From Alphaproteobacteria bacterium (GTDB lineage Bacteria > Pseudomonadota > Alphaproteobacteria > Rs-D84), in assembly GCA_031549365.1 (NCBI GenBank), contig JAVBPX010000001.1, forward strand, positions 96,001 to 160,000: a DNA stretch of 64,000 nt, read 5' to 3'. The notes below the pieces were generated by a model that searched no databases, was not told the DNA's origin, and worked only from the letters and a program-made list of their open reading frames with translations. This document shows, in pieces, positions 9,073-61,183 of this stretch. How positions within the stretch are numbered: the first letter of the stretch is position 1; every line of letters starts with the position of its first letter. Position numbers and translations under genes: made by a program.

Positions 9073-9158
9073 ATGGATTAATCTCCTATATTATTTTCTG
9101 TGGATTCCTTAAATTTTGTGATATAATACGCACGTTAAAACCATACAGGAGGAACCAC

Positions 9159-9956: not shown

Positions 9957-9959
9957 TTA

Positions 9960-11009
9960 ATGGGGACGACAATGTCAAAATTTCTATCTATTGTATTTGG
10001 AATACTTGGTGTTGTCGTCCTGTTATCCTTGGGACAGTCTGTAATTGTTCCATTTTTGGTCGCAATATTTGGCTGGTATTTAATTAATGCTCTGGCTACA
10101 TATTACGCCATGGTTATGCCACGCCCGAAATCAAAATGGACAAAAATATTTTCATTACTTTTTTCAATTGCAACCACCATTGGATTGGTCTGGTTGTTTG
10201 TAATTGAAATGACTCCAAACATCCATTTATTTATGGAAAGATGGCCTCAAATCCAATCAAAATTAATTATATTTTTACGCCAACTATTGGAACCTGTTGG
10301 AATTACAATATCAACATCTGCGATGAATATGGAATTTAATGAAATTGCTATGGCATTTCGTTCATCCCTGGCGGGATTATTTACATCCATGGGGTTAATA
10401 TTGGTGTATATATTCTTTATGTTTATTGAACAAGGAACTTTTGTTAATAAAATTCGTGCTCTTTTCTCTGAAAACAATCAGCACAAAAAAATCCTGCGAA
10501 TATTTCGTGACATCGACCATAATATGAAAAAATATTTATTTATCAGAACTGTAATGTCATCCATGATGGGTGTGTCATCTTATTTATGGATGTCCTACTT
10601 TAATTTGGAATTGGCTGGTTTTTGGGCATTTTTAATATTCGTATTAATGTATATTCCAACATTTGGATCAATTCTGGCATGTGCATTGCCTATACTTTAT
10701 TCATTGTTATTCTTTCGCGATATATCGGACACCATTACAATGGGACTTGGGATCGCAGCATTACAAATTGTTATCGGAAATATATTGGAACCAAAATTGA
10801 CCGGACAGACTTTGAATTTATCCACTTTGGCCATATTGGTAAACTTGGTATTCTGGGGAATTTTATGGGGACCCGTTGGAATGTTTTTCAGTGTCCCATT
10901 GTTGGTCGCAATATTGGTTGTAACATCACAATTTGATTCGATGCGTCCATTTGCAATTTTATTGTCCGCGAACGGAATAATCCCAGACAAGGAAGAAGAC
11001 GATAATTAA
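9960..11009 (+). CDS. AI-2E family transporter
   Basis: YIPTFGS, IGNILEPKLTG, FWGILWGPVGMFFSVPL motifs. Confidence 0.9.
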   Translation: MGTTMSKFLSIVFGILGVVVLLSLGQSVIVPFLVAIFGWYLINALATYYAMVMPRPKSKWTKIFSLLFSIATTIGLVWLFVIEMTPNIHLFMERWPQIQSKLIIFLRQLLEPVGITISTSAMNMEFNEIAMAFRSSLAGLFTSMGLILVYIFFMFIEQGTFVNKIRALFSENNQHKKILRIFRDIDHNMKKYLFIRTVMSSMMGVSSYLWMSYFNLELAGFWAFLIFVLMYIPTFGSILACALPILYSLLFFRDISDTITMGLGIAALQIVIGNILEPKLTGQTLNLSTLAILVNLVFWGILWGPVGMFFSVPLLVAILVVTSQFDSMRPFAILLSANGIIPDKEEDDN

Positions 11010-11039
11010 AAATAAACCAGAAACAAAATTTAAAAACTT

Positions 11040-11064
11040 GGGGCCCAATTTGGGCCCCACTTTT
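11040..11064. terminator. bidirectional intrinsic terminator
   Basis: GGGGCCCAA-TT-TGGGCCCC hairpin flanked by A/T runs between convergent genes. Confidence 0.75.
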
Positions 11065-11645
11065 TATTTAACTGATTTTATTTTCTTTGTTGCTTCTATT
11101 GTATATGTGACTGCGGACCAAATTGATAAAATCATTGCGATCCATAAACATAACATTGAAGCATAAAACACCAATTCCATAAATTTCGAATAAATGTATG
11201 GTGTACGAACCAAGGCTAAAAACAAATACAGACCGCTAATTGAAATAAATTGTGTGGCTGCTTTGATTTTACCAATTGAAAATCTTGGCTTTGGCACAGG
11301 CAATGAAATTTTCATTGATCCCAACCATTCGCGTAACCCAGATACATATAATTCACGCAAAATCATTAATATTGATGGTATCACACATGCCCATGCGCCC
11401 CACACAACCATCAATAACATTAATGCGATTGCCACCAAAAATTTATCACCCATGTGATCCATTACGCCGCCAAATTTGCTCTCCACTTTGTATTTTCTGG
11501 CCAAATACCCGTCAAAAAAATCCGTTGCTGCTGCGATTGAAAAAACAATAAACGCCGCACCAAACATTTGATTCATTGCCAATGGAATCAATGTAAAAGC
11601 ACCAATAATTCGAAATATAGTTAAAGCGTTAACAAATGTTTTCAT
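11064..11645 (-). CDS. pgsA: CDP-diacylglycerol--glycerol-3-phosphate 3-phosphatidyltransferase
   Basis: NALTIFRI, TDFFDGYLAR...GGVMDHMGDK CDP-alcohol phosphotransferase motif; uvrC-pgsA synteny. Confidence 0.9.
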   Translation of the reverse strand: MKTFVNALTIFRIIGAFTLIPLAMNQMFGAAFIVFSIAAATDFFDGYLARKYKVESKFGGVMDHMGDKFLVAIALMLLMVVWGAWACVIPSILMILRELYVSGLREWLGSMKISLPVPKPRFSIGKIKAATQFISISGLYLFLALVRTPYIYSKFMELVFYASMLCLWIAMILSIWSAVTYTIEATKKIKSVK

Positions 11646-11671
11646 TTAAAACTCCCTTTTGTTTATAATAT

Positions 11672-13471
11672 TTACCCTAGCGCGTCTTTGTGAAAAAATC
11701 TATATATTTTTTCAGCCGTTGATTTTGAAATACCATCAACCTTGGTCAAATTTTCGATTGAAGCGTCAATTATCCCGTTAACACTGCCGAAATATGCCAA
11801 TAATGCTTTTTTGCGCGTGCCGCCAATCCCCTCGATTGCGTCCAGCGCGGACCCAACCGCAGATTTTGCCCGTTGTTTTCGGTGAAATGATATTGCGAAT
11901 CGATGTGCTTCATCACGAACCGCACCCATTAAATTAAACAACTTGGTGTCCTTTTCAATTTTAACCTCTGACCCATCTGGCATTATGAAATGTTCATCGC
12001 CGGATCGAACCACACCCTTGACCACGCCCAATGTTGGAATATCCAAGCCAATTTCATTTTGAACCGATTTTGCAACATTCCATTGTGCGCGACCACCGTC
12101 AACAATAATTAAGCTCGGGATTGTTCCTTGTACTTCCGCTTTGGAATAACGTCGTAATAAAAATTCATGCATCATGCCGATGTCATTGCCGGCCATGGCT
12201 AAATCCTCCAATTTAAAATGGCGATATTCTTTTTTGTTAAAACCGTCCGCGCCAAATACAATCATGGACCCAACAGGATGTTTTCCAAACAAATGCGAAT
12301 TATCAAAAACATCAACCCTATTAATTTCAATACCCAACCAATTTTTTAAATCATTAATTGGCTCATCCCATTTTTTTATATTGTTTACAGAAAACCTCCG
12401 CGAGGATAACATTTGTTGTTCAATTTGATCGATTGCCCCCTTGTCTGATCCGTGCGCCATATTAATGTTAATTTTTCGTCCAAATTTTTCACGTAAAACT
12501 TTGGCCACATTTTCAGATATTTGAATTGATGTAACAATATTGATGTTATCTGTACAATCATTGTAAAACCATAATATGCTGGATTCCAGAATTTCCGAAT
12601 TTGTCATATCATCCGTGTGTTTTGGATAAATTGTTTGTGCGGAAATAATTTGACCATTGCGTTGCCTAGTAATCCCAACAATTGGTTGCGCCCCATCAAA
12701 CACACCAACAAAATAATCAACATTTCGGGTATCATGCTTGCCTTGTTTCACAGTTGTTGATATGGCTTGGATTTGATCTCTGAAACGCGTTGCGCTTTCG
12801 TAATCCATTTTATTTGATGCCGCCGCCATCTTAACTGATAATTCGCGAATCAAATCATCCGATTTCCCGGATAATACAGAACGTGCAAATTCAACATTTT
12901 TAATATATTCACCATGCGAAATTTTATCGCAACATGGACCAGAACACCGACCAATTTGATACAACAGACATGGCCTCACACGGTTTTTAAACATAGCATT
13001 GGAACAAGTCCGTAATAAACAAACCCTCTGAATTAACTTGACTGTTTCATTTAATGCGCCAACTGATGGGTACGGCCCAAACACATCACGTTTTGCTGTA
13101 ATTTTTCCACGAAATTTAATCAAGCGCGGAAAATTATCATCACTGATGTTCATCAATGGATACATTTTATCATCAGTTAATAAAATATTATATTTTGGGG
13201 CCCTATTTTTTATCAAATCAGATTCTAATATCAAAGCCTCGGTCTCGGTCTTGGTTGTTAAAATATCAACCTTATCAATCTGCAAAACCATTTGCCCAAT
13301 ACGTGCCGACACCTTGGATAAATCAGTATACTGATTTAAACGCTTTTTTAAATTCTTGGCCTTGCCTACATATAACAGTTTTGATTCATGATCAAACATC
13401 TGATAAACCCCTGGGGTTTCCGGGGCATTTTCGATTAAAATTTTTAATTTTTCTACTTTCATTATTTGCAA
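11672..13471 (-). CDS. uvrC: excinuclease ABC subunit C
   Basis: GIY-YIG (PGVYQM, LYVGKAKNL), Cys cluster, DNSH, DGG, RDEAHRFA, HhH. Confidence 0.96.
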   Translation of the reverse strand: MQIMKVEKLKILIENAPETPGVYQMFDHESKLLYVGKAKNLKKRLNQYTDLSKVSARIGQMVLQIDKVDILTTKTETEALILESDLIKNRAPKYNILLTDDKMYPLMNISDDNFPRLIKFRGKITAKRDVFGPYPSVGALNETVKLIQRVCLLRTCSNAMFKNRVRPCLLYQIGRCSGPCCDKISHGEYIKNVEFARSVLSGKSDDLIRELSVKMAAASNKMDYESATRFRDQIQAISTTVKQGKHDTRNVDYFVGVFDGAQPIVGITRQRNGQIISAQTIYPKHTDDMTNSEILESSILWFYNDCTDNINIVTSIQISENVAKVLREKFGRKININMAHGSDKGAIDQIEQQMLSSRRFSVNNIKKWDEPINDLKNWLGIEINRVDVFDNSHLFGKHPVGSMIVFGADGFNKKEYRHFKLEDLAMAGNDIGMMHEFLLRRYSKAEVQGTIPSLIIVDGGRAQWNVAKSVQNEIGLDIPTLGVVKGVVRSGDEHFIMPDGSEVKIEKDTKLFNLMGAVRDEAHRFAISFHRKQRAKSAVGSALDAIEGIGGTRKKALLAYFGSVNGIIDASIENLTKVDGISKSTAEKIYRFFHKDALG

Positions 13472-13529
13472 ACACCACTATTTTATGATATAATAGCGTC
13501 GCAAACATAAAAAAACAAGGGAGTGTTTC

Positions 13530-14006
13530 ATGTTAATTAAAAAATCCGAATCTGGACGTTCCATGATTGAAATGTTGGGTGTTTTGGCAATTATGGGCGT
13601 TTTGACTATCGGCGCCATCCAATTGGTATCATACGCCATGGCGACCCAGAAAAAAGGCACGGTTGAAACCGAAATTGTCCAAATATACCAAGGCGTTCGC
13701 AATATTTTCAGCGCAGCCGAAGATTATTCTGCCCTGGATAACGGCGTATTCGGAGCAATGGGTATTTCACAAAAAAATCCGTATGGCGGAACATATTCTG
13801 TATCGGCTGATGTTTCCAATCCACGCCAATTCACGGTTCATATTAATGGATTGCCAAAATCGGATTGCGAATACTTTAAACTGAAACGCTGGACAGAATC
13901 TGTTGAATATATCAACAGCAACGGCCAACGTGGCGGCGCCGTTGCAACCCCAGCGGATTGCTCGGACCGTGCTGGAAATAATACAGTATCAATTACTTAT
14001 TTCTAA
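13530..14006 (+). CDS. type IV pilin-like protein
   Basis: Class III signal ESG|RSMIEMLGVLAIMGVL; C-terminal NPYGG...INGLPKSDC like PilS-type pilins. Confidence 0.85.
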   Translation: MLIKKSESGRSMIEMLGVLAIMGVLTIGAIQLVSYAMATQKKGTVETEIVQIYQGVRNIFSAAEDYSALDNGVFGAMGISQKNPYGGTYSVSADVSNPRQFTVHINGLPKSDCEYFKLKRWTESVEYINSNGQRGGAVATPADCSDRAGNNTVSITYF

Positions 14007-14024
14007 ACCACGAAAATCAAACTT

Positions 14025-14047
14025 GGGGCCGATTGGCCCCTTTTTTT
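14025..14047 (+). terminator. intrinsic terminator
   Basis: GGGGCC-GATT-GGCCCC followed by a T run. Confidence 0.8.
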
Positions 14048-14132
14048 AATTGCCTTTTTATGTTGCCCAGGCTTTTATTCTTGACAAAACATTTATTTAA
14101 TATACAATTACCGTAACCAAAAGGCATAAACC

Positions 14133-14795
14133 ATGATTAAACCAGATTGCTTTGATTGTCCGATATCGCCGGGATGCCTGCCATCAACCGCAATGATTTG
14201 CGATGATAAACTGAAAAAAATAATGTTTTCTAACCACGGGGAAAATTGGCTTTGGCTGGTATTGTATCCGCAATTGTCATTTTTAATTTTATCCGCAGAG
14301 ATCACAATGAACCCTCGAATTTTGGGCAATACAGAAACAACCAAAGGCAATCCATATAATCATATCCAAAATTTCATCAAATCATTGGAATTGATGAAAA
14401 ATCAATTTTCATTTATGTCGGCAACATCAGACTTAATAACATATTATGAACTGATTTTAAAATCAACACGGAACAATAAATTATTGCGCGACGATTTTGA
14501 ATATATGGAATTATGCGGACATTATACTGGGAAATGGTCCCAACCCGACAATATAAAAAATATGCACTATGTTACTATAAATAAAATCTTGTTGGATCTA
14601 TCATCCAGTTTCAGCCGTCCTACAAAATTCACCGTGGATAAAAAAACGTACGATCGCCCTGCTTTGTCTGCAAATGACATTAAAAACTTTGAACTTTTTA
14701 CGCAAATCACATCTGAAAGATTTCGTGAATTATCCGAAAACTTTCAAAAAGCATCCATCGGCATATATGACTTTGACGACGACCAAGGGAGATAG
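14133..14795 (+). CDS. hypothetical protein, paralogue 1 of 3
   Basis: TTGACA-17-TACAAT promoter upstream; shares AExxMNP and NxHY motifs with the next two ORFs. Confidence 0.75.
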   Translation: MIKPDCFDCPISPGCLPSTAMICDDKLKKIMFSNHGENWLWLVLYPQLSFLILSAEITMNPRILGNTETTKGNPYNHIQNFIKSLELMKNQFSFMSATSDLITYYELILKSTRNNKLLRDDFEYMELCGHYTGKWSQPDNIKNMHYVTINKILLDLSSSFSRPTKFTVDKKTYDRPALSANDIKNFELFTQITSERFRELSENFQKASIGIYDFDDDQGR

Positions 14796-14806
14796 AGGAC
14801 AAAAAA

Positions 14807-15373
14807 ATGCAAACAAAAACAATTGCAACAAATTTTCCATATCCTTGTTCGGACGAAATGAAAAATGCTATGGAACAATTTCCAAAATCTCTCTATTGGA
14901 CCGAAAGCGTATTTCATTTCATATACGAAAATATTAAATTCGCAGAACTGACAATGAACCCAAAATATATTCATTCAAATAATTCTGATCCAACTCTTCG
15001 ATTCCGCGCATATTATACAAATGTGATGGACGTTATGCGCAGCCTGAATTTAATCCACTATATGGAATTCCCCGAAGTTAAAAATCATTACGATAAAATT
15101 TTGAACGCACTGCGTCCTCGGATTGAAATTGATGACATATTGGATTTATTTGAATTCTGTCGATACGATTTGGCCACATGTACCCCAACCCGAAACAATA
15201 TCCACTATGTTGCTATTATGAAAGTACTCCGTGAATGGAAAGACTCTGCAAACGGCAAACCATCTGTCATTATTGAAAAAATTGGACCAACCGCATCTGG
15301 CATTGCCTATAATAATTTCATAGATTTCACTAATGCTACAATCAAACACGTGCGCAATGAAAAATTAAAATGA
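14807..15373 (+). CDS. hypothetical protein, paralogue 2 of 3
   Basis: RBS GAGG; FAELTMNP, DILDLFE..YDL, NIHY. Confidence 0.75.
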   Translation: MQTKTIATNFPYPCSDEMKNAMEQFPKSLYWTESVFHFIYENIKFAELTMNPKYIHSNNSDPTLRFRAYYTNVMDVMRSLNLIHYMEFPEVKNHYDKILNALRPRIEIDDILDLFEFCRYDLATCTPTRNNIHYVAIMKVLREWKDSANGKPSVIIEKIGPTASGIAYNNFIDFTNATIKHVRNEKLK

Positions 15374-48394: not shown

Positions 48395-50065
48395 CTATCC
48401 ATTGATGATGTTGTTTAACCTGTCAATTACCCGGCTTTTACCCATAACTTGCATAATTGAATACAAGTCTGGGGTCATTTTACGTCCCGTTATTGCAACA
48501 CGCAAAAAAGACGCGACATCTGATACCGTCCCAATGTACTTATCGGGGGCAGCATCGTATTCCTTTTGATTTTTGGCAAAACCAAACCTTTCACCCAAAT
48601 CGCGAACGCCGTTGAACCAATCTGATGCGTCCAGCGCATCATCATAATTATCACGAAACTCGGATAAAACAGATATAATAACTTCATGGTTCAACCCATT
48701 GAATTCAGATTCAAATTTTGATTTTGTTAATTTGAATAAATCGTCATAGAAATACGATACTTCATCTAAAGTCTGACGCCATGTAACAAAATCTTTTCTG
48801 ATTCTTTTCGGATTATCGCGTTCAATCGCCAACATATTTTTTAAATAATCCGGGGATTTGGCAATTCGTTCCGACCAATCAGCATCATATTTCATGGCAA
48901 ATTCGTAAACGCTTGCAAACAAATCGTTAATCGACAATGTCGCAATCCATTCACGCGAAATGCTCTCTAATTTTTTCATATCAAATAATGCGCCTGATGG
49001 ACTCATCTTTTTTAAATTGATTGGATATGACCACATGTTAATTGATGAATTTTTTAATTTCGCATCTTCGTACCCAGATGCTGCAATATTAAACAAATAT
49101 TCCAAAATTGCCTGAGGAGCAAAACCCTGCTCTAACATTAATGCAATTGATGCTTCGGGGTCGTGACGTTTTGAAATTTTACGGCGTGATTCGCCATCCA
49201 TTTTATCAATTGTCCCCAAATGAGCATAAACAGGCACATCCCAACCCATCATTTGAAATAACGACACGTGCAAAGGCATTGATGACAACCATTCTCCGCC
49301 ACGAACAACGTGCGTTGTGCGCATTAAATGATCATCAACCAAATGGGCAAAATGATATGTTGGCAAACCATCCGATTTTAAAATAACAATATCCGTGTCG
49401 TTTTGCGGAAATGCAATTGATCCGCGGAGAGCGTCCTTACAATAAATTTTTTCATCATAATTACCGGTTGAATATAATCTAAAAATTGGTTTTTTCCCGG
49501 CGTCCAAACGCGTGATAATTTCATCCTCGGCCAAATTACGATCACGGGCATATTCACCGTAAAAGCCGGGCCTCAACCCACTTTTCGTTTGAATGGATGT
49601 GATTTTTTCAATATCATCTTCGGCCATAAAACATGGGTATGCCAAACCGCGCTCCAATAAATCAGCAACATATGTTTTATAAATTTCAACGCGATGACTT
49701 TGGGTATATGGGCCATAATTACCGTGCTCGCCCCCACCCAGTTTTGGGCCCTCGTCAATCTTTAATCCGAATCTTGATTCAACCTCTAAAATAACATCTA
49801 TTGAACCTGCGACCGAACGTTTTGTGTCGGTATCTTCGATACGTATAAAAAATACACCATTTGATTGATGGGCCAAACGCTCGTTTATCATTAACATATT
49901 TAATGAGCCCAAATGCAAAAACCCGGTTGGGGATGGCGCGAAACGCGTAACCATTGCCCCGTCCAACAATTCTCGCTTTGGATACATTTCTTCCAATTGA
50001 TTTGGGGTATATTTAACATCCCCTAACAAACGTCCAATTAATGATTTTGATAGGCCTGATCTCAT
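48395..50065 (-). CDS. gltX: glutamate--tRNA ligase
   Basis: TRFAPSPTGFLHLG, RIEDTD, PTYHFAHLVDD, KISKR; start moved to MRSGL. Confidence 0.93.
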   Translation of the reverse strand: MRSGLSKSLIGRLLGDVKYTPNQLEEMYPKRELLDGAMVTRFAPSPTGFLHLGSLNMLMINERLAHQSNGVFFIRIEDTDTKRSVAGSIDVILEVESRFGLKIDEGPKLGGGEHGNYGPYTQSHRVEIYKTYVADLLERGLAYPCFMAEDDIEKITSIQTKSGLRPGFYGEYARDRNLAEDEIITRLDAGKKPIFRLYSTGNYDEKIYCKDALRGSIAFPQNDTDIVILKSDGLPTYHFAHLVDDHLMRTTHVVRGGEWLSSMPLHVSLFQMMGWDVPVYAHLGTIDKMDGESRRKISKRHDPEASIALMLEQGFAPQAILEYLFNIAASGYEDAKLKNSSINMWSYPINLKKMSPSGALFDMKKLESISREWIATLSINDLFASVYEFAMKYDADWSERIAKSPDYLKNMLAIERDNPKRIRKDFVTWRQTLDEVSYFYDDLFKLTKSKFESEFNGLNHEVIISVLSEFRDNYDDALDASDWFNGVRDLGERFGFAKNQKEYDAAPDKYIGTVSDVASFLRVAITGRKMTPDLYSIMQVMGKSRVIDRLNNIING

Positions 50066-50216
50066 ACTTAAATCCTTTTTATAACGGCTTATATTATAAT
50101 CCCCCTCCCCAATAATGCAAGAGGATTTAACCATCCTGTTAATTCAAGCCCTTGAAATATTTTTATTGAACTGTTATAATTCGCCCAATACCAAAGGTAT
50201 GCATTTGGGGAATAAC

Positions 50217-51781: not shown

Positions 51782-51873
51782 GGAGAGGTGGCAGAGCCCG
51801 GTTGAATGCGCTCGACTCGAAATCGAGTATACTGGCGACAGTATCGGGGGTTCGAATCCCCCCCTCTCCGCCA
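51782..51873 (+). tRNA. tRNA-Ser(CGA)
   Basis: GGAGAGG/CCTCTCC acceptor, CTCGA-CT-CGA-AA-TCGAG anticodon arm, long variable arm, TTCGAAT, G73-CCA. Confidence 0.96.
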
Positions 51874-51951: not shown

Positions 51952-52088
51952 GATGCGATTTTAAGGTTATTGCAATGGTATGTGATTTAATATGTGAAAA
52001 TACGGCGATATTTTGATGTTTACATACAATGCCCGTTTTTGGCAGTGCACTGTTCATTGGTGCGAGGAAATTTTAAGGGAGTTTATTA

Positions 52089-52191
52089 TTGACTTTTTTG
52101 ATGATTTGTGGTATAATGCAGAGTATATTAGGACGGATTTTATCCGTCTTTTTTAATTTTAGTCCCGCTATTTTTGGCGGGGCTTTTTTTT
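52089..52191 (+). promoter_or_regulatory. sigma70 promoter followed by two terminator-like hairpins
   Basis: TTGACT-17-TATAAT (52089-52117); GACGGA-TTTTA-TCCGTC+T run; CCCGCTA-TTTT-TGGCGGG+T run. Confidence 0.65.
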
Positions 52192-52210
52192 ATATTTTTA
52201 AGGGAGTAAT

Positions 52211-52990
52211 ATGAAAAATAATTTTTTTAACGAACAATCTTTAAATTCTGATATTAAAACTCAGATTATCTTAGCTACATTTAAACTTTGGCTTCAAGAC
52301 AATAAAAAGGAACAAAATCTATCTTATATTGATCTATTTTCAGGGCCTGGCATATATGATGATGGAACATTATCTACACCGATATGTATTTTACAGGAAA
52401 TTTGCAATAATAAGAGAATGGCACAGAGATTCAATGTGATCTTAAATGATTATAATGCAGAATTTATTGCAAAATTGCGTCGTATGATTTTGAATGTGAA
52501 AAATGCTAGGTTTATAAAAACTTTGGTTACTTCGATTGGTAATGCTGAAAGTTTTCAAAAGACCGTATCTAATAATGAACATATCTTCATGTTAATTGAT
52601 CCTTGGGGATGGAAGGGTATAAATAGAAATTATATTAATAATATGTTATTAAATAAGGACTGTGATATTGCGGTGATGTTTAATTTTAATCAGTTTAATC
52701 GGTTTATGAATTTTGATATCGCAGATGAATTGTTTAATGATTTGTTTGATAAAAAAACTTTGCACGAAATACGTAAATTTTGTAGCACAAATCCAAAATC
52801 GGAAAGAGAACAATTCGTGATAGATAAATTTGTGAAAATGGTTTGTAAAAATTGTGAAAATTGTAATTACACGCCATTTAAATTTAAGATGGAAAAATCG
52901 ACGCGTACAAGCCATTATATTATTTTTATAATTCGTGATAAAGATAGATTTCAAGCAACGAAAACTTTGTTAAATCAATACTTGGCTTGA
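52211..52990 (+). CDS. tcmP: three-Cys-motif partner protein (TcmP, SAM-methyltransferase-like fold)
   Basis: YIDLFSGPGxYDDG...TP, LIDPWGWKG; directly upstream of DUF5131. Confidence 0.8.
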   Translation: MKNNFFNEQSLNSDIKTQIILATFKLWLQDNKKEQNLSYIDLFSGPGIYDDGTLSTPICILQEICNNKRMAQRFNVILNDYNAEFIAKLRRMILNVKNARFIKTLVTSIGNAESFQKTVSNNEHIFMLIDPWGWKGINRNYINNMLLNKDCDIAVMFNFNQFNRFMNFDIADELFNDLFDKKTLHEIRKFCSTNPKSEREQFVIDKFVKMVCKNCENCNYTPFKFKMEKSTRTSHYIIFIIRDKDRFQATKTLLNQYLA

Positions 52991-53021
52991 AAAATAATAT
53001 CGTTTCTGGCATAATGTGAAT

Positions 53022-53756
53022 ATGGCAGAAAAATCTAAACTTGAATGGACGGATGCAACGTGGAACCCAGTTGTTGGATGTACAAAGTACAGCGATGGGT
53101 GTATAAATTGTTATGCAAAACCAATTGCAGAACGTTTGTGTAGACAAGGAGTTTTTGGATACGAAAATGGTTTTAAAATGACATTGCGTCCAGAGCGTTT
53201 GGAAATTCCATTGCATTGGAAAAAACCAAGATTAATATTTGTAGACTCCATGTGCGATTTATTTCACGATGATGTGCCATTAGAATATATTCAGAAAGTT
53301 TTTGCAATAATGAAGCGTGCAGATTGGCATGTTTATACCATATTAACAAAACGATCAAAGCGTTTGCGTGAATTGGCGTCAAACCTTGAATGGATGCCGC
53401 ATGTTGTAATGGGTGTAACGATTGAATCCGATAAATATCGTGATAGGCTGGATGATTTGAAGGCTGTGCCTGCATATATGCGATATTTATCATTGGAGCC
53501 ATTGTTGGGACCAATTAACCGATTGGATTTGGATGGAATTGATTGGGTTATTGCTGGTGGAGAATCCGGACCAAATGCACGGCAACTGGATACAAATTGG
53601 GTCAGAGAAATTCGCGATTGGACATTGGAACAAAAAGCTGCGTTTTGGTTTAAACAGTATAGCGAGTATGGGGGACAGCATAAAGACCCTATTTTAGATG
53701 GGGAAAAATATAAGCAATTTCCAGATTTTAAAACCGGAAAACCGAGTCTGTTTTAA
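53022..53756 (+). CDS. DUF5131 (phage Gp37/Gp68-like) radical-SAM-like protein
   Basis: EWTDATWNPVVGCTKYSDGCINCYA, SMCDLFH, LTKR, SLEPLLG, WVIAGGESG, FKQ. Confidence 0.9.
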   Translation: MAEKSKLEWTDATWNPVVGCTKYSDGCINCYAKPIAERLCRQGVFGYENGFKMTLRPERLEIPLHWKKPRLIFVDSMCDLFHDDVPLEYIQKVFAIMKRADWHVYTILTKRSKRLRELASNLEWMPHVVMGVTIESDKYRDRLDDLKAVPAYMRYLSLEPLLGPINRLDLDGIDWVIAGGESGPNARQLDTNWVREIRDWTLEQKAAFWFKQYSEYGGQHKDPILDGEKYKQFPDFKTGKPSLF

Positions 53757-53959
53757 TGGCAATGATTTATACAATCGGTTTTAGTGGAAAAACAGCGGAC
53801 ATTTTTACGGATGTTCTGGATGCTGTTGGTGTCAAAAAATTGATTGATATTCGTTTATGGCGGGCGTCACGATTTGTTCCATGGGCATCGGGTGCAAATT
53901 TGCAGAAACTTTTGGGTGACAAATATTGTTATATGCCGGAATTGACACCAACAAAATGA
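53756..53959 (+). pseudogene. truncated DUF488-family protein
   Basis: IYTIGFS...LIDIR...PELTPT then stop at 67 aa; C-terminal CxHR region absent. Confidence 0.7.
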
Positions 53960-54387
53960 AGAAATTATTAAAAAGATAAATTATCGTCTGGGTACAAATG
54001 CGGATAAAATAAAACTCATTGAAAAAAACTATAATCGTCCGAATATTGAAGAATATTTGCAAATGTTTTCAAAAAACATGGATGGAGTAGATGAGACCAG
54101 AATTGCCCACTTTTATTTGAAATATTGCGATTTCAAACATTCCAATGTACTGACGTGTTTAGAAGGACAAATACTTGATTTTCAGGTTGAACGCGTTATT
54201 ACAGTAATGGTTATGCTTGTTACATATTTGAGTATGGCAAAATTAGAGCCCTATGTACATCCTGTCGGTATTTAAATATCAATTATCCAGTAGGAAAATA
54301 CTATTATGGATCAATGCTGTTAGTGAGACTTTCTTGACTTTTTAACATTATAATAGTAGCATCCTTTGTGAGAAAAATGAGGTTTAA

Positions 54388-55980
54388 ATGTCGGATAACA
54401 ATGCCATTCATTGGGCGGATTTTATTGCAGAGCGAATAATTCGTGAAAAAGGCGATAAAGATTTATATACTTTGGCCAGCGGAATTACCCCGTCTGGGAC
54501 AATTCATATTGGAAAATTTCGCGAGATTATAACCACCGAATTGGTGTCCCGGGCGTTGGTTCGCATGGGGAAAAAGGTACGTTTTATTTATTCTTGGGAT
54601 GATTATGATACTTTTCGCAAAGTGCCGGGCGATATGCCACAGCAAGAGATGTTAAAAGAATTATTGTATCAGCCGATTGTCGATATTCCAGATGTTTACG
54701 GAACAGAAAGTTCTTATGCTCGGCATAACGAAGTGTCGTTGGAACGTATTGCTCCGGTATTGGGCATAACAAATATTGAATTTATTTATCAAAGTCGGAT
54801 GTATCGTAGTGGCGAATATAATGATTTGATTATAAAGGTTATGGATTCGCGAGATAAAATTCGTGATATTTTACAGACATCTAAAAGCCAGGGGATGGAT
54901 GAAGAGTTTTATCCTATTGCAACTTATTGCAGCAATTGCAATCGTGACCGAATTGTTTTTTCAAATTATAATACATCAGATAAAACAGTTGATTATAAGT
55001 GTAAGTTATGCAACCACACGGAAAAGTTAAATTTACGCGATTCAAGGCGGCTGAAATTGCCTTGGCGAATTGATTGGCCAATGCGTTGGGCATTTGAAAA
55101 TGTTGATTTTGAACCAGGTGGGACAGATCATTCTTCGGCTGGGGGCAGTTTTGATACCAGCAAAGTAATCGTTAGTGAGATTTTTGGAGGGGCGTCTCCG
55201 GTTTATGCAAAATATGCATTTGTATTGCCAAAGGGTGAAAGCAAAAAGATGTCTTCGTCAATTGGTAACGGGTTTTCTGTGGAAAGCGTTTTGCAGGTTT
55301 ATGAACCAGAAATGATACGTTGGTTTTTTGCTTCGTATAAACCAGATGCGCAGTTCAGTATGGCTTTTGACATTGATGTTTTGAAGAATTACGAAGCATT
55401 TGACCGAATGGAACGCGTGGTTTATGGATTGGAAGATGTGAATGATGACAGGCGTGCAGTGCAGCGGCGTATTTATGAAATGTCTCAGATAAATTTTGAT
55501 GGAAAGATTCCGGAACAGATGCCTTTTCAGCCGAGTTTTAGGCACCTGTGTAATCAGTTGCAAATAAACGAATTTGATATCGAAAAAACCAGAGCATATT
55601 ACGCCCACCAAATCAAAAATGACATCGATGAACAACGGTATCAAGAAAGGTCCAAATGCGCAGTATTTTGGATACAAAATTGTGCTTCGGATGATTTCAA
55701 ACTTATATTGAATTCCGAAAAACGCAATGACATGACATTGTCGACAGATGAAAAAAAGTTCGTGAATGACTTGCACAAAATGTTGGAGATTGATTGGGAC
55801 AATTTAGATGACGAACGCGTCTTACAAAGTAAGGTCGGTGAATTAATTAAGGCCAACGGATTGGAAGTACTAAATGCGTATAAACTGTTATATCAGTTAC
55901 TGGTCAATCGGGACCAAGGACCAAAGCTGGCCGGATTTATTTTGGGTATTGGCAAGGATAAGATTCTGAATTTGTTGTAA
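54388..55980 (+). CDS. lysS: class I lysine--tRNA ligase (spirochaete-like)
   Basis: HWAD, ASGITPSGTIHIG, SWDDYD..RKVP, KLPWRIDWPMRW, KMSSS, GPKLAGFI. Confidence 0.93.
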   Translation: MSDNNAIHWADFIAERIIREKGDKDLYTLASGITPSGTIHIGKFREIITTELVSRALVRMGKKVRFIYSWDDYDTFRKVPGDMPQQEMLKELLYQPIVDIPDVYGTESSYARHNEVSLERIAPVLGITNIEFIYQSRMYRSGEYNDLIIKVMDSRDKIRDILQTSKSQGMDEEFYPIATYCSNCNRDRIVFSNYNTSDKTVDYKCKLCNHTEKLNLRDSRRLKLPWRIDWPMRWAFENVDFEPGGTDHSSAGGSFDTSKVIVSEIFGGASPVYAKYAFVLPKGESKKMSSSIGNGFSVESVLQVYEPEMIRWFFASYKPDAQFSMAFDIDVLKNYEAFDRMERVVYGLEDVNDDRRAVQRRIYEMSQINFDGKIPEQMPFQPSFRHLCNQLQINEFDIEKTRAYYAHQIKNDIDEQRYQERSKCAVFWIQNCASDDFKLILNSEKRNDMTLSTDEKKFVNDLHKMLEIDWDNLDDERVLQSKVGELIKANGLEVLNAYKLLYQLLVNRDQGPKLAGFILGIGKDKILNLL

Positions 55981-55984
55981 TTCA

Positions 55985-56749
55985 TTACCTTTCTTGTATG
56001 TGCTTTCCCATAATGCACTGGCGAGCGATGATTTTTTTGATGTTACTGCCGACAAGTTGCGATGTTAGAGGGCAATGATAGCTTTTTTTGAAATTTTCAG
56101 TGCATTGTTGTAAAGTTTCTGTAAAATTTGGTTTATAAAATTTTCCAATTTCTATACCCACAGGGGTGTTTTCAAGATTTCCCTTTGCTATTTCGTTATC
56201 AAAATTTTGTTTTGTAGTCGCAATTATATGTTTATTATCAGTGGTATGCAAGTGTGGTTCAGCCCTCTCCCATTGCGGTTGTGTAGATACAAATTTATCG
56301 GCCTCTTGCTTGTATGTTGAGTGTAATAGTGGACTATCTTTTAGTATTATTTTAGGTAAGTGCAACACCCATAAAATAATTCGAGCATATTGAAATTGCG
56401 ATAATATGCAATCAGTTAATACGCATGAAGAACTCATAATTGACGGTAGAGAATCTTTAATGTTATTTGCAATGTATATGAGATCTGAAAGGCATTCTTT
56501 GTCTAGGCAAAATCCAAGGTGGTCAAAATCCTTTTGAAGGTCGTAATGCAGTTTCTTCATGTATTCAAGAAATTTTTTTTCTTGTTCGTGGTTGGATTTT
56601 TTTAGTAATATAAAAGTGTCAACATCTGAATTTGTTTTATCTTCACCTCGAGCAGTTGAGCCACATATAAATGAAAACTCTAGATTGTCTCCGAATATCT
56701 CTCGGGTATCTAAGTCCAATTGTTTTATCTGTTTTTTTGTTATTTTCAT
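55985..56749 (-). CDS. Pol-beta-superfamily nucleotidyltransferase-domain protein
   Basis: FICGSTARGEDKTNSDVDTFI (hGS...DxD). Confidence 0.8.
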   Translation of the reverse strand: MKITKKQIKQLDLDTREIFGDNLEFSFICGSTARGEDKTNSDVDTFILLKKSNHEQEKKFLEYMKKLHYDLQKDFDHLGFCLDKECLSDLIYIANNIKDSLPSIMSSSCVLTDCILSQFQYARIILWVLHLPKIILKDSPLLHSTYKQEADKFVSTQPQWERAEPHLHTTDNKHIIATTKQNFDNEIAKGNLENTPVGIEIGKFYKPNFTETLQQCTENFKKSYHCPLTSQLVGSNIKKIIARQCIMGKHIQER

Positions 56750-56771
56750 TATTATTTACCAGTTGCTGTTT

Positions 56772-58229
56772 TTATAAGTATCTTACGATTTCTCTCTGAG
56801 GTAGAATTGGTTGTGGAGTAAATATGCCTTTGTAATAGATTCCAGATGCATGCTTTCCTATACCGCCATATGGTTTGTATCCATGCTCGAAATTGTGTAG
56901 ATGGTCATTCACAAGTATAGAGTCCGGCATATGGATTTTTTCATCATAAAGTATGGCTATTGTTTCTTCTTTTAATTTTCCATAAACTGTCAAAAACATA
57001 GCTGATTCTTTATATTTTGTATTTTTGAAATAGTTTATAAGTTCATTTTCTGAATCATAAGGTTGTATAAAGAATATTGGACAGAACAATTCTTCGTAAT
57101 TAGCTCCTTCAGAGAGATCCTTTACTATTACCGTAGGATATATCATATTTTTTGAAGCGTCTATAAGACCTCCATAATAAATATTCTTCCGATTGTTATA
57201 AATTAGTTTTGCAGCATTTAATGCGTATCCATCTTTTGTATTAGGCATTATTATCGTGGATTTTTCAGGATTTGAATTACAGTTTTCATGAATTTCTTTT
57301 AATTTATTTATTAAAATTTCTTGAAAATCTGTTAAACAATCTCTTTTCACAAGTAATGCATTTGGGGCGGCACAGTCTTGTCCTTGGTTGTATGTTCCAA
57401 GCTCGATACATGCTTCGACGGCTTCTTTGATATTTGACCGAAGATTTATTATAACCGGGTTTTGTCCAGCACCACCAAAGAAACAATATAACTCTTTGTT
57501 ATACGATCTTTTTACTTTCTTCATGTTTTCATATGTACCTGTAAATATAAATGCCTTTATTTCATTTCGTGTAATATTGAGAAAATCCTCTCTTCCTCCA
57601 TAGAATATTTCTATATTTGGCATACTTGATAAATTTAACAATTTATCTAGCTCTTTAAAAACGTCTTGAGAATCATTTGGATATCTAACATATACTTTCT
57701 TACAAATATACGATGGAACAAGAGCAAAACAAACAAAGGAATACAGCAATTGGTTTAAAGGCATAAATGACGCGATTGGTGCTTTCTCTTTTAAAAAGTA
57801 TTCCTTATTTATGGTAAGATTTGTAAGAAGGTCTATTGATCTATCAATTTCATCACATATTGTATTATAGGTGGCATATGATGAAAGAGCTTTATAGATA
57901 TCTTCTCTGCGCTGATTTAATTGAAACGAAAAATTGAGCGCGTCTGTTAAAATTTTATCAAAGTCTAGATTATTTTCCACGTCTTTTTTAGAAATATTTG
58001 TTCTTTGTCCAAACCAAGAGCCAATTTCCTTTTTACTGAGTTTCTCTGTTTTTACTATAAGCCCTAAGTCATTTTTTTCATACTCCAGGCTGAGATTGTT
58101 AATATTGTGGAGTATATTATCTTTAGCTTTTGTATCCATCTCATCAAATTTGAGGATAAAAGTCAGCCCATTTTTATCTTGTAAAATGGTTCCAATAGGC
58201 TGTTTCTTTTTCCTTACTATGAAGTCCAT
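56772..58229 (-). CDS. aldehyde dehydrogenase-fold protein (atypical)
   Basis: PLNQ, FTGT, GGAGQNP, NQGQDC (catalytic Cys), EELFCP, PYGG; RBS AAGGAG. Confidence 0.85.
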   Translation of the reverse strand: MDFIVRKKKQPIGTILQDKNGLTFILKFDEMDTKAKDNILHNINNLSLEYEKNDLGLIVKTEKLSKKEIGSWFGQRTNISKKDVENNLDFDKILTDALNFSFQLNQRREDIYKALSSYATYNTICDEIDRSIDLLTNLTINKEYFLKEKAPIASFMPLNQLLYSFVCFALVPSYICKKVYVRYPNDSQDVFKELDKLLNLSSMPNIEIFYGGREDFLNITRNEIKAFIFTGTYENMKKVKRSYNKELYCFFGGAGQNPVIINLRSNIKEAVEACIELGTYNQGQDCAAPNALLVKRDCLTDFQEILINKLKEIHENCNSNPEKSTIIMPNTKDGYALNAAKLIYNNRKNIYYGGLIDASKNMIYPTVIVKDLSEGANYEELFCPIFFIQPYDSENELINYFKNTKYKESAMFLTVYGKLKEETIAILYDEKIHMPDSILVNDHLHNFEHGYKPYGGIGKHASGIYYKGIFTPQPILPQREIVRYL

Positions 58230-58260
58230 ATTTTCTCCTTGATTAATGTGGACCTTAAGT

Positions 58261-59760
58261 TTATCTCAACTTTATTTTTTTTAACATGGGAAATGTTAAA
58301 ACATCTCTGATATTAGATGAGTTTGTTAACATCATGGCGAGGCGATCTGCACCTATTCCCATGCCTCCTGTAGGGGGCATACCGTATTCTAAAGCTGTAA
58401 GAAAGGCTTCATCCATTTGCATTGCTTCAGGATCATCTGAAAGAGATGCTTGTTCTTCGAATTTTTTTCTTTGATCTATTGGATTTGATAATTCTGAGTA
58501 AGCTTCACCAAATTCAATGCCGCCAACATAGAGCATAAATCTTTCAGAAAGACGTGGGTTTTGTCGATGTATTTTTGTCAGCGGAGATATATCATATGGA
58601 ACATCCATTACGAAAGTTGGTTGAATAAGAGTTTTTTCGACTTTTTCTTCAAATATAGTTTCTACTACTTTACCCCAAGATTCAGTTCCCTTGAGTCGAA
58701 TTTTGTGTTTTTGGGCAATGCTATGAATTTCCCTATCGCTCATGTTTATAAGATCTTCGTTCAGCGCTTCTGATGCTGCGTCTACCATTGGTAATCTTTT
58801 AAATGGTTTTTCAAGGTCTATTAAGGCATCTTTCCAAGTAATGTGGAGAGAGCTGTTGACAGCCATAGATGAATCTCGCAGCAATCTTTCTGCGAGAATC
58901 ATCATGTCAAAATAGTCTTTATAAGAGCCATATATATCTAGCATTGTGAATTCTGGACTGTGGCGATTATCAATACCTTCATTGCGGAAATTTTTACCAA
59001 TTTCAAACACTCGAGGAATGCCTCCAACAATGAGCCGCTTTAGTTCAAGTTCAGATGCTATCCTGAGATAAAAATCGTCTTTAAGAGAATTATAATGTGT
59101 AGTAAATGGAGCAGCATTTGCACCGGCTTTTACTGGGTGAAGTATAGGTGTTTCTACCTCTATATATCCCTCATCGTGCATTACTTCGCGTATAGCATAC
59201 ATTGCTTTCGCCCTATTGAGAACAACATCCCGAGAGTTTTTGTTTACTATAAGATCTACGGATTTATTGCGGTATCTTTCTTCGGAGTCTGTTAGACCGT
59301 GGTATTTTTCAGGAAGAATATTCAATGATTTTGACAGCATTGTTACTTCCAGAGGAGTAACAGAAACTGCTCCTCGCAAAGTTTTTTTAATTCCTCCCAA
59401 AACACCAATTATATCACCAATGTCAAGATTTTTAAGCATGTTATTAAATTGTGTATCTGCTTTTGGATTTTCATTGCAAATTTGAATTTTTCCGGATTCA
59501 TCTTCAACATCGATGAACATTCCGGAATTTCGGATTGCCATAATTCTTCCTGCAATTTTTACAATGTCTTTTGTATCCGCTGTCTTTTCACCAGGTTGAA
59601 GGTGGCCAAATTCAGCTATTATATTACTGGCAAGATGCGTTGGTTTGTATATGTGTGGATATGCGTTTATTCCTTGAGATTCGATGTCTTTAAGTTTTTG
59701 AATCCTTATTTCTTTTAAAGAATTTATTGGTGTCTTATTATCTTTTTTTTGATTTTGCAT
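58261..59760 (-). CDS. lysS: class II lysine--tRNA ligase paralogue (full length, with OB-fold)
   Basis: AGRIMAIR, LPEKYHGL, EVETP, YLRIASEL, FRNEG..HSPEF, YGMPPTGGMGIGADRL. Confidence 0.92.
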   Translation of the reverse strand: MQNQKKDNKTPINSLKEIRIQKLKDIESQGINAYPHIYKPTHLASNIIAEFGHLQPGEKTADTKDIVKIAGRIMAIRNSGMFIDVEDESGKIQICNENPKADTQFNNMLKNLDIGDIIGVLGGIKKTLRGAVSVTPLEVTMLSKSLNILPEKYHGLTDSEERYRNKSVDLIVNKNSRDVVLNRAKAMYAIREVMHDEGYIEVETPILHPVKAGANAAPFTTHYNSLKDDFYLRIASELELKRLIVGGIPRVFEIGKNFRNEGIDNRHSPEFTMLDIYGSYKDYFDMMILAERLLRDSSMAVNSSLHITWKDALIDLEKPFKRLPMVDAASEALNEDLINMSDREIHSIAQKHKIRLKGTESWGKVVETIFEEKVEKTLIQPTFVMDVPYDISPLTKIHRQNPRLSERFMLYVGGIEFGEAYSELSNPIDQRKKFEEQASLSDDPEAMQMDEAFLTALEYGMPPTGGMGIGADRLAMMLTNSSNIRDVLTFPMLKKIKLR

Positions 59761-59782
59761 AGATATACCTTTTTATACTTTT

Positions 59783-59855
59783 TGGGGGGCGGTCCGGATT
59801 TGAACCGTACCTCTGAGGGAAAACTCAGCGTTCTGCCTAATTATACTACCCGCCC
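59783..59855 (-). tRNA. non-canonical tRNA-like gene (73 nt including CCA)
   Basis: GGGCGGGTAGTATAATTAGGCAGAACGCTGAGTTTTCCCTCAGAGGTACGGTTCAAATCCGGACCGCCCCCCA: acceptor GGGCGG/CCGCCC, D-loop GG, CTGAG/CTCAG arm with 6-nt loop, GGTTCAAATCC, CCA. Confidence 0.8.
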
Positions 59856-59938
59856 TATAATTGTGATGAAGTGATCCCATCAACTTATCATTGTTTATGT
59901 CAAAAGCAATTTAAATGTCAATAATTATTTTTTGTTAT

Positions 59939-61051
59939 TTATTTGTTATTTAATATAATTAATGGCACTTGCATTTCGGATGCTGTCCCGCCTGCATGTT
60001 CAGATGCTGGTGAGCCAAACTCTTCCCAAGCTTTTTGATTTTGATGCAATGATTTGTTTCCTATTCCAATTGCGACATAGTCCCCGATTGATTCATCTTC
60101 CAGCACTCTATTCTTGGCAGAATACCAGTGAAGGTAGTTTGTTTTAAAAGTTTCCTTATTGATCAGCAAAAAATCTTTCTCCGAAAATATTTCATAAAAT
60201 ATTCTTTCAAAGCTATTTTTAGCCTCTGGTTTTACGAAAAATTGTGTACAACGCGCCTCACATGAAATCGGCATTATCAGAGTGTCAGCAATACCCGTAA
60301 AATCTTCGATAAATAAGGGCAAAGTATCAATATGACCGTGATCAGCAGTTATGATGAATAATGTATCTGGGCAATTATTTTGCAAATTTATTATTGCATC
60401 TCGTATATTGCAGATACAATTTCTGGCTTCGCCAGACAAAATTCCGTGATCATGGTTAGTGCTATCTGGCTCCGGCCAATACGCGTATATGTAATTTTTA
60501 TTGGCATTTTTTGTATTTGCTATTTTTTCAATAGTTGAACACCATTTCTCAACTGTATTATGCTCTGGTGTAATAAACTGAGGCATAACCTCAAAAGCGC
60601 TCCATTCGGAAATATCATTGATTTGGTCAACAAGTAATGCTGGCATTTTTTCCAACGGAGGCTTCGTAAGATGAGATGATTCACCACTATAAAAGTCACA
60701 ATTAGTAAAATTTTCGACAATCTCTCCAGATTCTTTATAATATTGCGACCATCCCAATAACCCATGTGATACAGGCAACAGCCCCGTGCGCAAAGTTGTT
60801 GTGGCGGCAACCGTAGTAGAAGGAACTATTGTATCAATAGTATCATATTTGTTTTTATAAAAATAGTCTGTCACAGAATCGCTTAATACATCCAGCTGTT
60901 CTGTCCCCATTCCGTCTAGGACTATAAGAGCTATGTTTTTGTACACTTCCGATGACCACGAATTTATGATCATTGGATGCGACTCATAATTTGGACATAG
61001 TCCAACAATTTTTTGTATTGCAGATGTTATTGATGTTATATCGTATTTCAT
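59939..61051 (-). CDS. alkaline-phosphatase-superfamily nucleotide pyrophosphatase/phosphodiesterase
   Basis: LIVLDGMG, PSTT, EPDSTNHDHG, ITADHG, EHAG; probable start MKYDI. Confidence 0.85.
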   Translation of the reverse strand: MKYDITSITSAIQKIVGLCPNYESHPMIINSWSSEVYKNIALIVLDGMGTEQLDVLSDSVTDYFYKNKYDTIDTIVPSTTVAATTTLRTGLLPVSHGLLGWSQYYKESGEIVENFTNCDFYSGESSHLTKPPLEKMPALLVDQINDISEWSAFEVMPQFITPEHNTVEKWCSTIEKIANTKNANKNYIYAYWPEPDSTNHDHGILSGEARNCICNIRDAIINLQNNCPDTLFIITADHGHIDTLPLFIEDFTGIADTLIMPISCEARCTQFFVKPEAKNSFERIFYEIFSEKDFLLINKETFKTNYLHWYSAKNRVLEDESIGDYVAIGIGNKSLHQNQKAWEEFGSPASEHAGGTASEMQVPLIILNNK

Positions 61052-61183
61052 GAGGTACATATTAGCAATGACATATCTTGAAGTCAACCGCGTATTTGGT
61101 TGAAAGTTGAGCGGAATTCTAGTTTCGTGGGAATATTGGTTGTTTTTATGTTTTGGTAATGAATTTTCATTGTTATTTAAAAT

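Follow-up and report, generated by a model that had tools for sequence, protein, structure and literature searches.

An operon on the minus strand of the window, the 64,000-nt stretch of an alphaproteobacterial genome analyzed here (G000:C14:96001-160000), encodes a class II lysyl-tRNA synthetase (LysRS), a tRNA-like RNA, an enzyme of the aldehyde dehydrogenase (ALDH) superfamily, and a polymerase beta (Pol-beta)-type nucleotidyltransferase (NTase), and it converges on a gene for the unrelated class I LysRS. We found that homologs of the ALDH-like enzyme are coupled to LysRS by gene fusion and by adjacency across phyla. As judged from gene content, an ALDH-superfamily enzyme coupled to a LysRS of either class, often with a Pol-beta NTase, forms a widespread and apparently undescribed module. 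The best explanation for the operon in the window, which we hold with moderate confidence, is that it is an acquired copy of this LysRS-coupled module, in which the ALDH-like enzyme would act as a thioester reductase on Lys-tRNA. The host is a gut bacterium with a tiny genome (0.9 Mb) that carries three LysRS genes; the assembly comprises 911 kb in 15 contigs, is 97.6% complete, and has a GC content of ∼39%.

The evidence for coupling comes from the ALDH-like family as a whole. The window protein has 76 other homologs in a 5.8-billion-protein collection, the best of which is 40% identical. Several of these are labeled "lysyl-tRNA synthetase class 1" at the source, and one Xenorhabdus protein holds a fragment of class I LysRS. 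We examined 160 loci (the best 80 from species genomes and the best 80 from metagenomes), which gave 148 distinct ALDH-like sequences after twelve duplicates were set aside, and scored all open reading frames (ORFs) of these loci with profiles built for this analysis. In 109 of the 148 distinct loci, the ALDH-like gene was fused to, or lay beside, a class I LysRS or a piece of one. The class I catalytic domain shared one open frame with the ALDH-like domain in 35 loci, lay at most 600 nt away in 10 (mostly actinomycetes), and lay within 5 kb in 1; another 63 proteins carried only a fused C-terminal extension, which hhalign identified as a homolog of the final ∼90 residues of class I LysRS (probability, 98.2%; E = 4e-14). 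Fusions occurred in both domain orders, with LysRS-ALDH in Photorhabdus, Xenorhabdus, Pseudomonas, and Brenneria and ALDH-LysRS in Saccharibacteria and other Patescibacteria. No class I piece was detected in the remaining 39 loci; for 25 of these, the contig ends within 1.8 kb. The HIGH-like and KMSKS-like motifs are retained in each of the 46 linked class I catalytic domains. The family is found in Patescibacteria, Actinomycetota, Gammaproteobacteria, Bacteroidota, and this alphaproteobacterium, and for many of its proteins neither of the current annotations, "lysyl-tRNA synthetase class 1" and "aldehyde dehydrogenase," fits.

The coupling extends to the other synthetase class. A full-length class II LysRS is encoded within 5 kb of the ALDH-like gene in 7 of the 148 loci (L035, L066, L116, L156, L169, L174, and L185), and since these class II partners occur in separate lineages, they were evidently recruited independently. 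The two classes are unrelated and have only lysyl-adenylate and Lys-tRNA-Lys in common, so these molecules offer the most economical basis for the link. Neither ArgRS nor any other aminoacyl-tRNA synthetase was found beside ALDH-like genes that lack a LysRS (37 neighboring proteins from 12 loci). The linked LysRS is the only one found in genomes G438 and G439 (class II) and G441 (a fusion), and it is an extra copy in G440 and in Photorhabdus G442. An NTase is adjacent or fused in 13 of the 148 loci, with fusions in L097, L174, L187, and L190, and no phosphodiesterase gene of the kind that opens the window operon was found beside the ALDH-like genes in loci L032 to L111.

The ALDH-like gene of the window (positions 56772 to 58229, minus strand) encodes a protein that matches PF00171 with 68 bits. 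Its AlphaFold2 model (predicted local distance difference test [pLDDT], 93.6) has an ALDH fold and matches GapN (PDB code 3pqa; Foldseek E = 8e-21; template-modeling score, ∼0.66), and its sequence is 13 to 20% identical to those of solved ALDHs. All 49 fold matches listed belong to the ALDH superfamily, and the fold of HemA, the glutamyl-tRNA reductase (GluTR), is not among them. ESM Atlas returned only generic "aldehyde dehydrogenase family" clusters for this protein, and some family members have weak hits to the LuxC profile, PF05893. In a profile alignment with solved ALDHs, Cys286 of the family motif NQGQDC aligns with the catalytic Cys and is present in all 148 aligned sequences, and the family motif NGAGHNP aligns with ELGG(K/H)xP, so that Asn252 takes the position of the general-base Glu. 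Among the 148 homologs and the window copy, Asn252 and His256 occur in 147 sequences, as does Glu380 of the NAD site. In ALDHs, the Cys is the nucleophile, and hydrolysis of the resulting thioester requires the general-base Glu. Because this Glu is absent, the family should not be filed with ordinary hydrolytic aldehyde dehydrogenases; a Cys enzyme predicted to be unable to hydrolyze its thioester is typical of the superfamily members that form or reduce thioesters.

These features suggest a mechanism in which the lysyl group of Lys-tRNA, or of lysyl-adenylate, would pass to the Cys of the ALDH-like enzyme as a thioester, which NAD(P)H would then reduce, with release of lysine aldehyde. In the window, the class II LysRS of the operon would charge the tRNA-like RNA, which has an acceptor arm, a CCA end, and a U-rich loop and is predicted to be incompetent for decoding, and a dedicated RNA of this kind would keep the pathway apart from translation. 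The ALDH-like enzyme would then be a convergent analog of GluTR. In the C5 pathway to heme, glutamyl-tRNA synthetase (GluRS) charges tRNA-Glu, and a Cys of GluTR accepts the glutamyl group, forming a thioester whose reduction with NADPH yields an amino-aldehyde; for lysine, we propose the same logic. The two differ in that GluTR has the HemA fold, is free-standing, and has an established activity, whereas the present enzyme has an ALDH fold, is fused to parts of LysRS, and has a predicted activity. To our knowledge, GluTR is the sole enzyme family known to reduce aminoacyl-tRNA. Another comparison is with LuxC, the acyl-protein reductase, and the CoA-acylating ALDHs, in which a Cys nucleophile forms a thioacyl intermediate that is not hydrolyzed and an aldehyde is product or substrate. 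Fold and Cys are shared with these enzymes, but the donor here would be an aminoacyl-tRNA or adenylate rather than CoA or an acyl-protein.

The NTase gene (positions 55985 to 56749, minus strand; PF01909, 31 bits; PF18765, 28.8 bits) is the last of the operon. Its GS...DxD...D signature residues G30, D42, D44, and D76 are invariant in nine aligned homologs, and its AlphaFold2 model (mean pLDDT, 51.3) is confident at residues 1 to 77 only.

The original prediction, made from the letters of the window alone, had placed LysRSs of both classes side by side, and ORFs and profiles bear this out: the class I gene occupies positions 54388 to 55980 on the plus strand (530 amino acids [aa]), and the class II gene (lysS2) occupies positions 58261 to 59760 on the minus strand (499 aa). 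Read along the minus strand, the operon runs from a gene for a type I phosphodiesterase/nucleotide pyrophosphatase-like protein (positions 59939 to 61087; PF01663, 48.3 bits) through the tRNA-like gene and lysS2 to the ALDH-like and NTase genes, with successive gaps of 82, 23, 31, and 22 nt. The tight junction with the class I gene also proved correct. The class I TAA stop ends at position 55980 and is followed by the four nucleotides TTCA before the NTase stop begins at position 55985 on the minus strand, and nothing resembling a terminator lies between the two stops. The nearest terminator-like hairpin for the minus strand, and the sole one downstream of the operon, is at positions 55606 to 55592, ∼380 nt within the class I gene and antisense to it.

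By composition and distribution, the operon at positions 55985 to 61087 is acquired, foreign DNA. The GC content is 30 to 33% in the NTase and ALDH-like genes and 36 to 37% in lysS2, compared with ∼39% for the genome. The ALDH-like, NTase, and phosphodiesterase genes were each found in 0 of 40 relatives (24 from the same family and 16 from the same order). At the island borders, a search for repeats gave only short AT-rich chance matches. With PADLOC, the NTase gave nothing more specific than generic MNT-type hits and the other four proteins gave no hit, and thus the island is not a catalogued defense system.

Parts of the stretch were recovered in two metatranscriptome runs, and one DNA run of the same study, possibly its source, contains all of it. 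The RNA-library contigs, all 100% identical to the window, cover positions 55653 to 56194, 58243 to 58452, 59391 to 59707, 59705 to 59922, and 60681 to 60828; they give neither strand nor level nor proof of transcription, and DNA carry-over is possible. Bins of the stretch that lack such contigs (17 of 30) carry no information. One contig (58243 to 58452) spans the junction between lysS2 and the ALDH-like gene, and another (59705 to 59922) spans the tRNA-like gene and the start of lysS2. The 542-nt contig at positions 55653 to 56194 bridges the convergent junction of the class I and NTase genes and ends just short of the hairpin at positions 55592 to 55606. Transcripts from the two sides probably overlap.

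The tRNA-like gene (positions 59784 to 59856, minus strand) was detected by ARAGORN and by the Rfam tRNA model. It matches all 71 of 71 model positions of RF00005 (E = 7e-4 in a 601-nt local search) and retains the cloverleaf, a 6-bp acceptor stem plus a G.A pair, a TTCAAAT T-loop, the GG of the D-loop (G18G19 type), and an encoded CCA. ARAGORN assigns it a 2-nt "anticodon": a 5-bp stem carries the 6-nt loop UUUUCC, where a 7-nt loop with U33 and a purine at position 37 would be expected of a decoding tRNA. No close parent was found among the genome's 44 other tRNAs, and ordinary tRNA-Lys(UUU) and tRNA-Lys(CUU) genes are present elsewhere in the genome.

Similar RNAs accompany the module in other bacteria. 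ARAGORN found 31 tRNA genes in the 160 loci, 8 of them for tRNA-Lys; in distinct loci the count is 7 of 29, an enrichment over the 2 of 44 in the window genome (binomial P = 2.6e-4). The tRNA-Lys or tRNA-Lys-like genes that adjoin pairs of ALDH-like and class II LysRS genes have abnormal anticodon loops in four of four cases: UUCUUUA with U37 in L035 (79 nt, with CCA encoded, whereas the normal tRNA-Lys of that genome has no encoded CCA), CUCUUUA with U37 in L116, CGUUUAA with G33 in L156 (identical to L159), and the 6-nt UUUUCC in the window. Near other types of ALDH-like gene (L067, L141, L176, and L182), tRNA-Lys has canonical loops, and G438 additionally carries tRNA-Lys(CUU) and tRNA-Lys(UUU) genes of normal form. 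The odd RNAs keep U-rich anticodon positions and lose decoding positions, which fits charged carriers that act outside translation.

Rather than a substrate, the tRNA-like element could be merely a dead tRNA or else a leader that mimics a tRNA and controls the island lysS. Its position 23 nt upstream of the lysS start, the presence of both in one RNA-library contig, a promoter-like −10 hexamer within the element, and an Rfam score (28.6 bits) below the gathering threshold of 29 would all fit this alternative. We nevertheless consider it improbable. The odd tRNA-Lys precedes the ALDH-like gene in L035 and L116 and follows lysS in L156, and therefore a role as lysS leader does not generalize; in addition, the element in the window keeps the nucleotides of its CCA end, T-loop, and D-loop, and tRNA-Lys genes are enriched in the loci.

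We next consider the origin of the three LysRS genes. The class I protein is intact (TIGR00467, 478 bits against a cutoff of 147.55, over residues 7 to 526 of 530; PF01921, 382.7 bits) and keeps both ATP-site signatures, the HIGH-like PSGTIHIG and the KMSKS-like KKMSSSIGNG, which align with those of the 46 ALDH-linked class I domains. The island class II protein scores 540.8 bits on TIGR00499 (cutoff, 427.6), with the OB-type anticodon-binding domain PF01336 at residues 67 to 141 and PF00152 at residues 159 to 493. A genome-wide search with PF01921 found a single class I LysRS gene, and one with PF00152 found four places: AspRS, the window class II LysRS, a weak hit on contig C11, and a class II LysRS on contig C5. 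A genome-wide count had been proposed as a check on the original prediction; it confirmed the two LysRS genes reported there and added this third one, which had been missed. The C5 protein (488 aa; TIGR00499, 589.6 bits) is 47% identical (227/485) to the window class II LysRS.

The same count extended to the relatives gave proteins above the cutoff in 27 of 41 genomes for TIGR00499 and in 11 of 41 for TIGR00467. Besides the window genome, only three members of the family (G012, G017, and G023) have a class I LysRS above the cutoff; in the remaining members, LysRS is of one or the other of two class II types. The window class I protein shares 68 to 79% identity with its counterparts in G012, G017, and G023 and 58% with those of a sister family; in a large protein database it has ∼20 homologs at 68 to 74% identity, several of them named Rickettsiales, after which identity declines smoothly. 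Its gene has a genome-typical GC content of 38 to 39.5%. Judged by identity and composition, the class I LysRS is the lineage's own native type. The C5 class II LysRS also looks native, being 70 to 78% identical to the copies in G008, G009, and G022 and falling inside a family clade with a support value of 100. The island class II LysRS does not look native. It forms a clade (support, 100) with only three metagenomic proteins (P0079 to P0081; 59 to 62% identity), and this clade is sister (support, 98) to copies from the order relatives G029, G030, and G034 and not to the C5 copy. A search of 400 genomes of the class found no closer kin, with a best identity of 52%. In the motifs TM.E.Y and E..N..SEL, which belong to the lysine site in the E. 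coli LysS and LysU structures, the island protein and P0079 to P0081 carry E-to-D and N-to-E changes; all other aligned LysRSs have E at the first site, and at the second most have N, with K in six copies from the candidate phyla radiation (CPR), P in two, and D in L035.

This history lends itself to an explanation without any module function, in which an exchange of LysRS is in progress, the three copies are a transitional redundancy, and the class I gene came to lie between two insertions by chance, with no tie to an operon that may be decaying. LysRS types form a mosaic among the 24 family relatives, and G017 combines the two classes but lacks the module. As given above, the class I and C5 class II proteins are similar to relatives' copies, which suits genes of the lineage itself. 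Shaul et al. (2006; PMC1475646) infer that one LysRS is exchanged for another by way of a stage with two enzymes, in alphaproteobacteria among others. Foreign DNA does flank the class I gene on both sides: upstream lies a separate foreign segment (positions 52211 to 54275, plus strand) with TcmP-like, DUF5131, and DUF488 remnants recognized by Pfam, downstream of a tRNA-Ser gene (positions 51782 to 51873) and with a GC content of 29 to 30% at positions 52000 to 53200. The window ALDH-like protein has, moreover, lost two near-invariant residues. Against chance stands the rarity of the arrangement: the genome has ∼806 non-overlapping ORFs of at least 100 aa and one class I gene, so that the chance of its flanking the island is ∼2/806, a rough post hoc figure. 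Also speaking against this explanation are the family-wide association of the ALDH-like gene with class I LysRS (109 of 148 loci), the intact state of all ORFs, the RNA-library contigs across operon junctions, and a comparable arrangement of three LysRS genes near ALDH-like and NTase genes in Saccharibacteria. On balance, we regard a mere transitional redundancy as rather unlikely.

In the family, gene order may show traces of such exchanges. The class II lysS of G022 (L011) and the class I lysK of G017 (L201) each lie directly upstream of a homolog of one and the same gene of the window genome (C1:3015-4382), and the two LysRS classes appear to share one genomic slot across the family, as if one had displaced the other in situ. 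Genes that neighbor the class I copies of G012, G017, and G023 have counterparts in the window genome on other contigs or have none, and no synteny with relatives was seen around the C5 class II gene either.

The position of the class I gene against the 3′ end of the operon is probably not due to chance. The original prediction had raised a possible role of the class I enzyme in the system and had named, as the finding that would speak against this, a syntenic housekeeping gene never linked to the cluster elsewhere. Matters are not that simple, since class I LysRS is linked to the ALDH-like family in 109 of 148 homologous loci. Co-occurrence of both classes in homologous clusters, another of the checks proposed, was found in three saccharibacterial loci (L068, L082, and L118), where ∼3 kb separate an ALDH-class I fusion from a divergent paralog of class II LysRS. 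The score of this paralog on the LysRS subfamily model (203 bits) falls short of the cutoffs for both LysS and EpmA. L068 and L082 also have the NTase, and the contig of L118 ends before the NTase position. The genome of L068 (G440) has three LysRS-type genes, namely, the fusion, the divergent paralog 3 kb away, and a standalone class II LysRS elsewhere, a layout that parallels that of the window genome. Participation is therefore supported by the family-wide linkage but opposed by the native type of the class I gene, its convergent orientation, and the existence of modules without class I. The enzyme may serve as a partner of the ALDH-like protein or as a back-up synthetase, or the tie may lie in convergent, overlapping transcription. 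A functional tie of the class I enzyme to the operon is plausible, and we are slightly more inclined to doubt it than to accept it.

The original prediction had also raised self-resistance. Under that proposal, the module would make a lysine-derived inhibitor, for instance an amino-aldehyde, or else an amino-alcohol that the NTase has adenylylated, and the two LysRS classes would shield translation from it. Resistance through extra synthetases, as with the mupirocin-insensitive IleRS of Pseudomonas fluorescens, and a reduced sensitivity of class I LysRS to lysine analogs are discussed by Shaul et al. (PMC1475646), who infer that class I may give protection from such analogs. The additional synthetase is alike in the two cases, but the mupirocin enzyme belongs to a polyketide cluster and the one here accompanies a reductase-like enzyme. 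The module of the window contains an NTase and a phosphodiesterase, and its genome carries three LysRS genes. A major facilitator superfamily (MFS) transporter gene directly follows the LysRS1-ALDH fusion in L055 (Pseudomonas) and L098 (Xenorhabdus) and the ALDH-like gene in L069 (Thiomonas). L032 (positions 7775 to 14951), from a Cytophagales metagenome-assembled genome, has ALDH-like and NTase genes amid genes for a 734-aa class I/II aminotransferase, a class III aminotransferase, a short-chain dehydrogenase/reductase (SDR), and a haloacid dehalogenase-like (HAD) protein, with no LysRS nearby, and has the look of a small-molecule pathway in which an aldehyde is processed. However, the ALDH-linked LysRS is the sole one in G438, G439, and G441, where an inhibitor of LysRS would poison its producer unless exported, and no exporter gene was seen with Pfam in the island of the window. 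We therefore consider self-resistance quite improbable.

The thioester reductase reading remains the one that we prefer, and several observations weigh against it. The predictions of substrate and product draw on gene linkage and on two positions of the active site. Both type and composition mark the class I gene as native, and, being convergent with the operon, it is not cotranscribed with it in the sense direction; G438 and G439 have class II-linked modules and no class I LysRS at all. Among 149 sequences, Gly252 and Gln256 are unique to the window ALDH-like protein, whose branch is long (1.47, compared with a median of 0.24), and this speaks against a fully active enzyme in the window; the C-terminal half of the NTase, too, cannot be aligned, and therefore the operon may be decaying. 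The pocket changes of the island class II LysRS occur also in P0079 to P0081, and the protein database contains no ALDH-like homolog above 40% identity; the changes therefore need not concern the module. Gene order is poorly conserved in this family, so missing synteny says little. The tRNA-like gene, besides its subthreshold Rfam score, has C as its discriminator, where the genome's tRNA-Lys has A; its D arm is weak, and the base of the acceptor stem holds a G.A pair. The RNA-library contigs carry the limits given above.

A bolder form of the reductase reading is possible but doubtful in our view. In that form, aminoacyl-tRNA reductases would include, next to GluTR, a second kind of the ALDH type, which docks on tRNA-Lys through borrowed class I domains or through a partner LysRS of either class and makes lysine aldehyde for a later, NTase-dependent step, with a decoding-incompetent carrier tRNA-Lys of its own in some genomes; in the window, both LysRS classes would then act on one RNA from opposite sides, one charging it and the other holding it for the reductase. 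A LysRS-coupled reductase family would give bacteria another way, arisen by convergence, to turn charged tRNA into an amino-aldehyde; the family examined here shows more than 100 cases of fusion or adjacency in five phyla. It would also provide a concrete reason for keeping both LysRS classes together with an odd tRNA-Lys, a puzzle since Bacillus cereus and Methanosarcina. In the literature searched, which leaves most subscription journals outside, we found no LysRS-ALDH fusion and no aminoacyl- or lysyl-tRNA reductase other than GluTR.

Both of those organisms are instructive. In Methanosarcina, a LysRS1:LysRS2 complex was once proposed to bind tRNA-Pyl jointly, an idea superseded by PylRS; both classes coexist there as here, but the organism is archaeal and the pair has no reductase-like partner. 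In B. cereus, LysRS1 and LysRS2 occur with tRNAOther next to a genomic island, and tRNAOther, which has a Trp anticodon, is now read as part of a regulatory RNA (PMC1475646, PMC3399842, and PMC2916919). The likeness is that both classes and a noncanonical tRNA-like RNA are found in one bacterium. The differences are that no ALDH-like enzyme or NTase is reported there, whereas here an RNA with a U-rich 6-nt loop lies inside the operon and the genome has three LysRS genes. A precedent for charged tRNAs outside ribosomal decoding is the nonproteinogenic tRNA-Gly used for cell wall synthesis, mentioned in one of these sources (PMC3399842). These tRNAs have normal anticodon loops, in contrast to the abnormal loops (U37, G33, or 6 nt) seen here.

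Several further observations concern the neighborhoods of the family and of the window. A histidine kinase gene (HisKA/HATPase_c) lies immediately 3′ of the ALDH-like gene in five CPR loci (L066, L104, L124, L130, and L176), which suggests a regulatory tie. L097:9533-12169 encodes an 878-aa triple fusion of a GNAT acetyltransferase, an ALDH-like enzyme, and a Pol-beta NTase, and GNAT genes also adjoin the ALDH-like gene in L089 and L098. A class II LysRS with a C-terminal DUF2000 domain (PF09391) is encoded at L035:7751-9718 and occurs also as P0146, P0171, and P0182; the L035 protein is the sole LysRS of its genome, and its gene adjoins the ALDH-like gene and the odd tRNA-Lys. Elsewhere in the window, positions 48395 to 50134 (minus strand) encode a bacterial-type GluRS of 579 aa, whose profile match begins at about residue 60, after an unexplained N-terminal extension.

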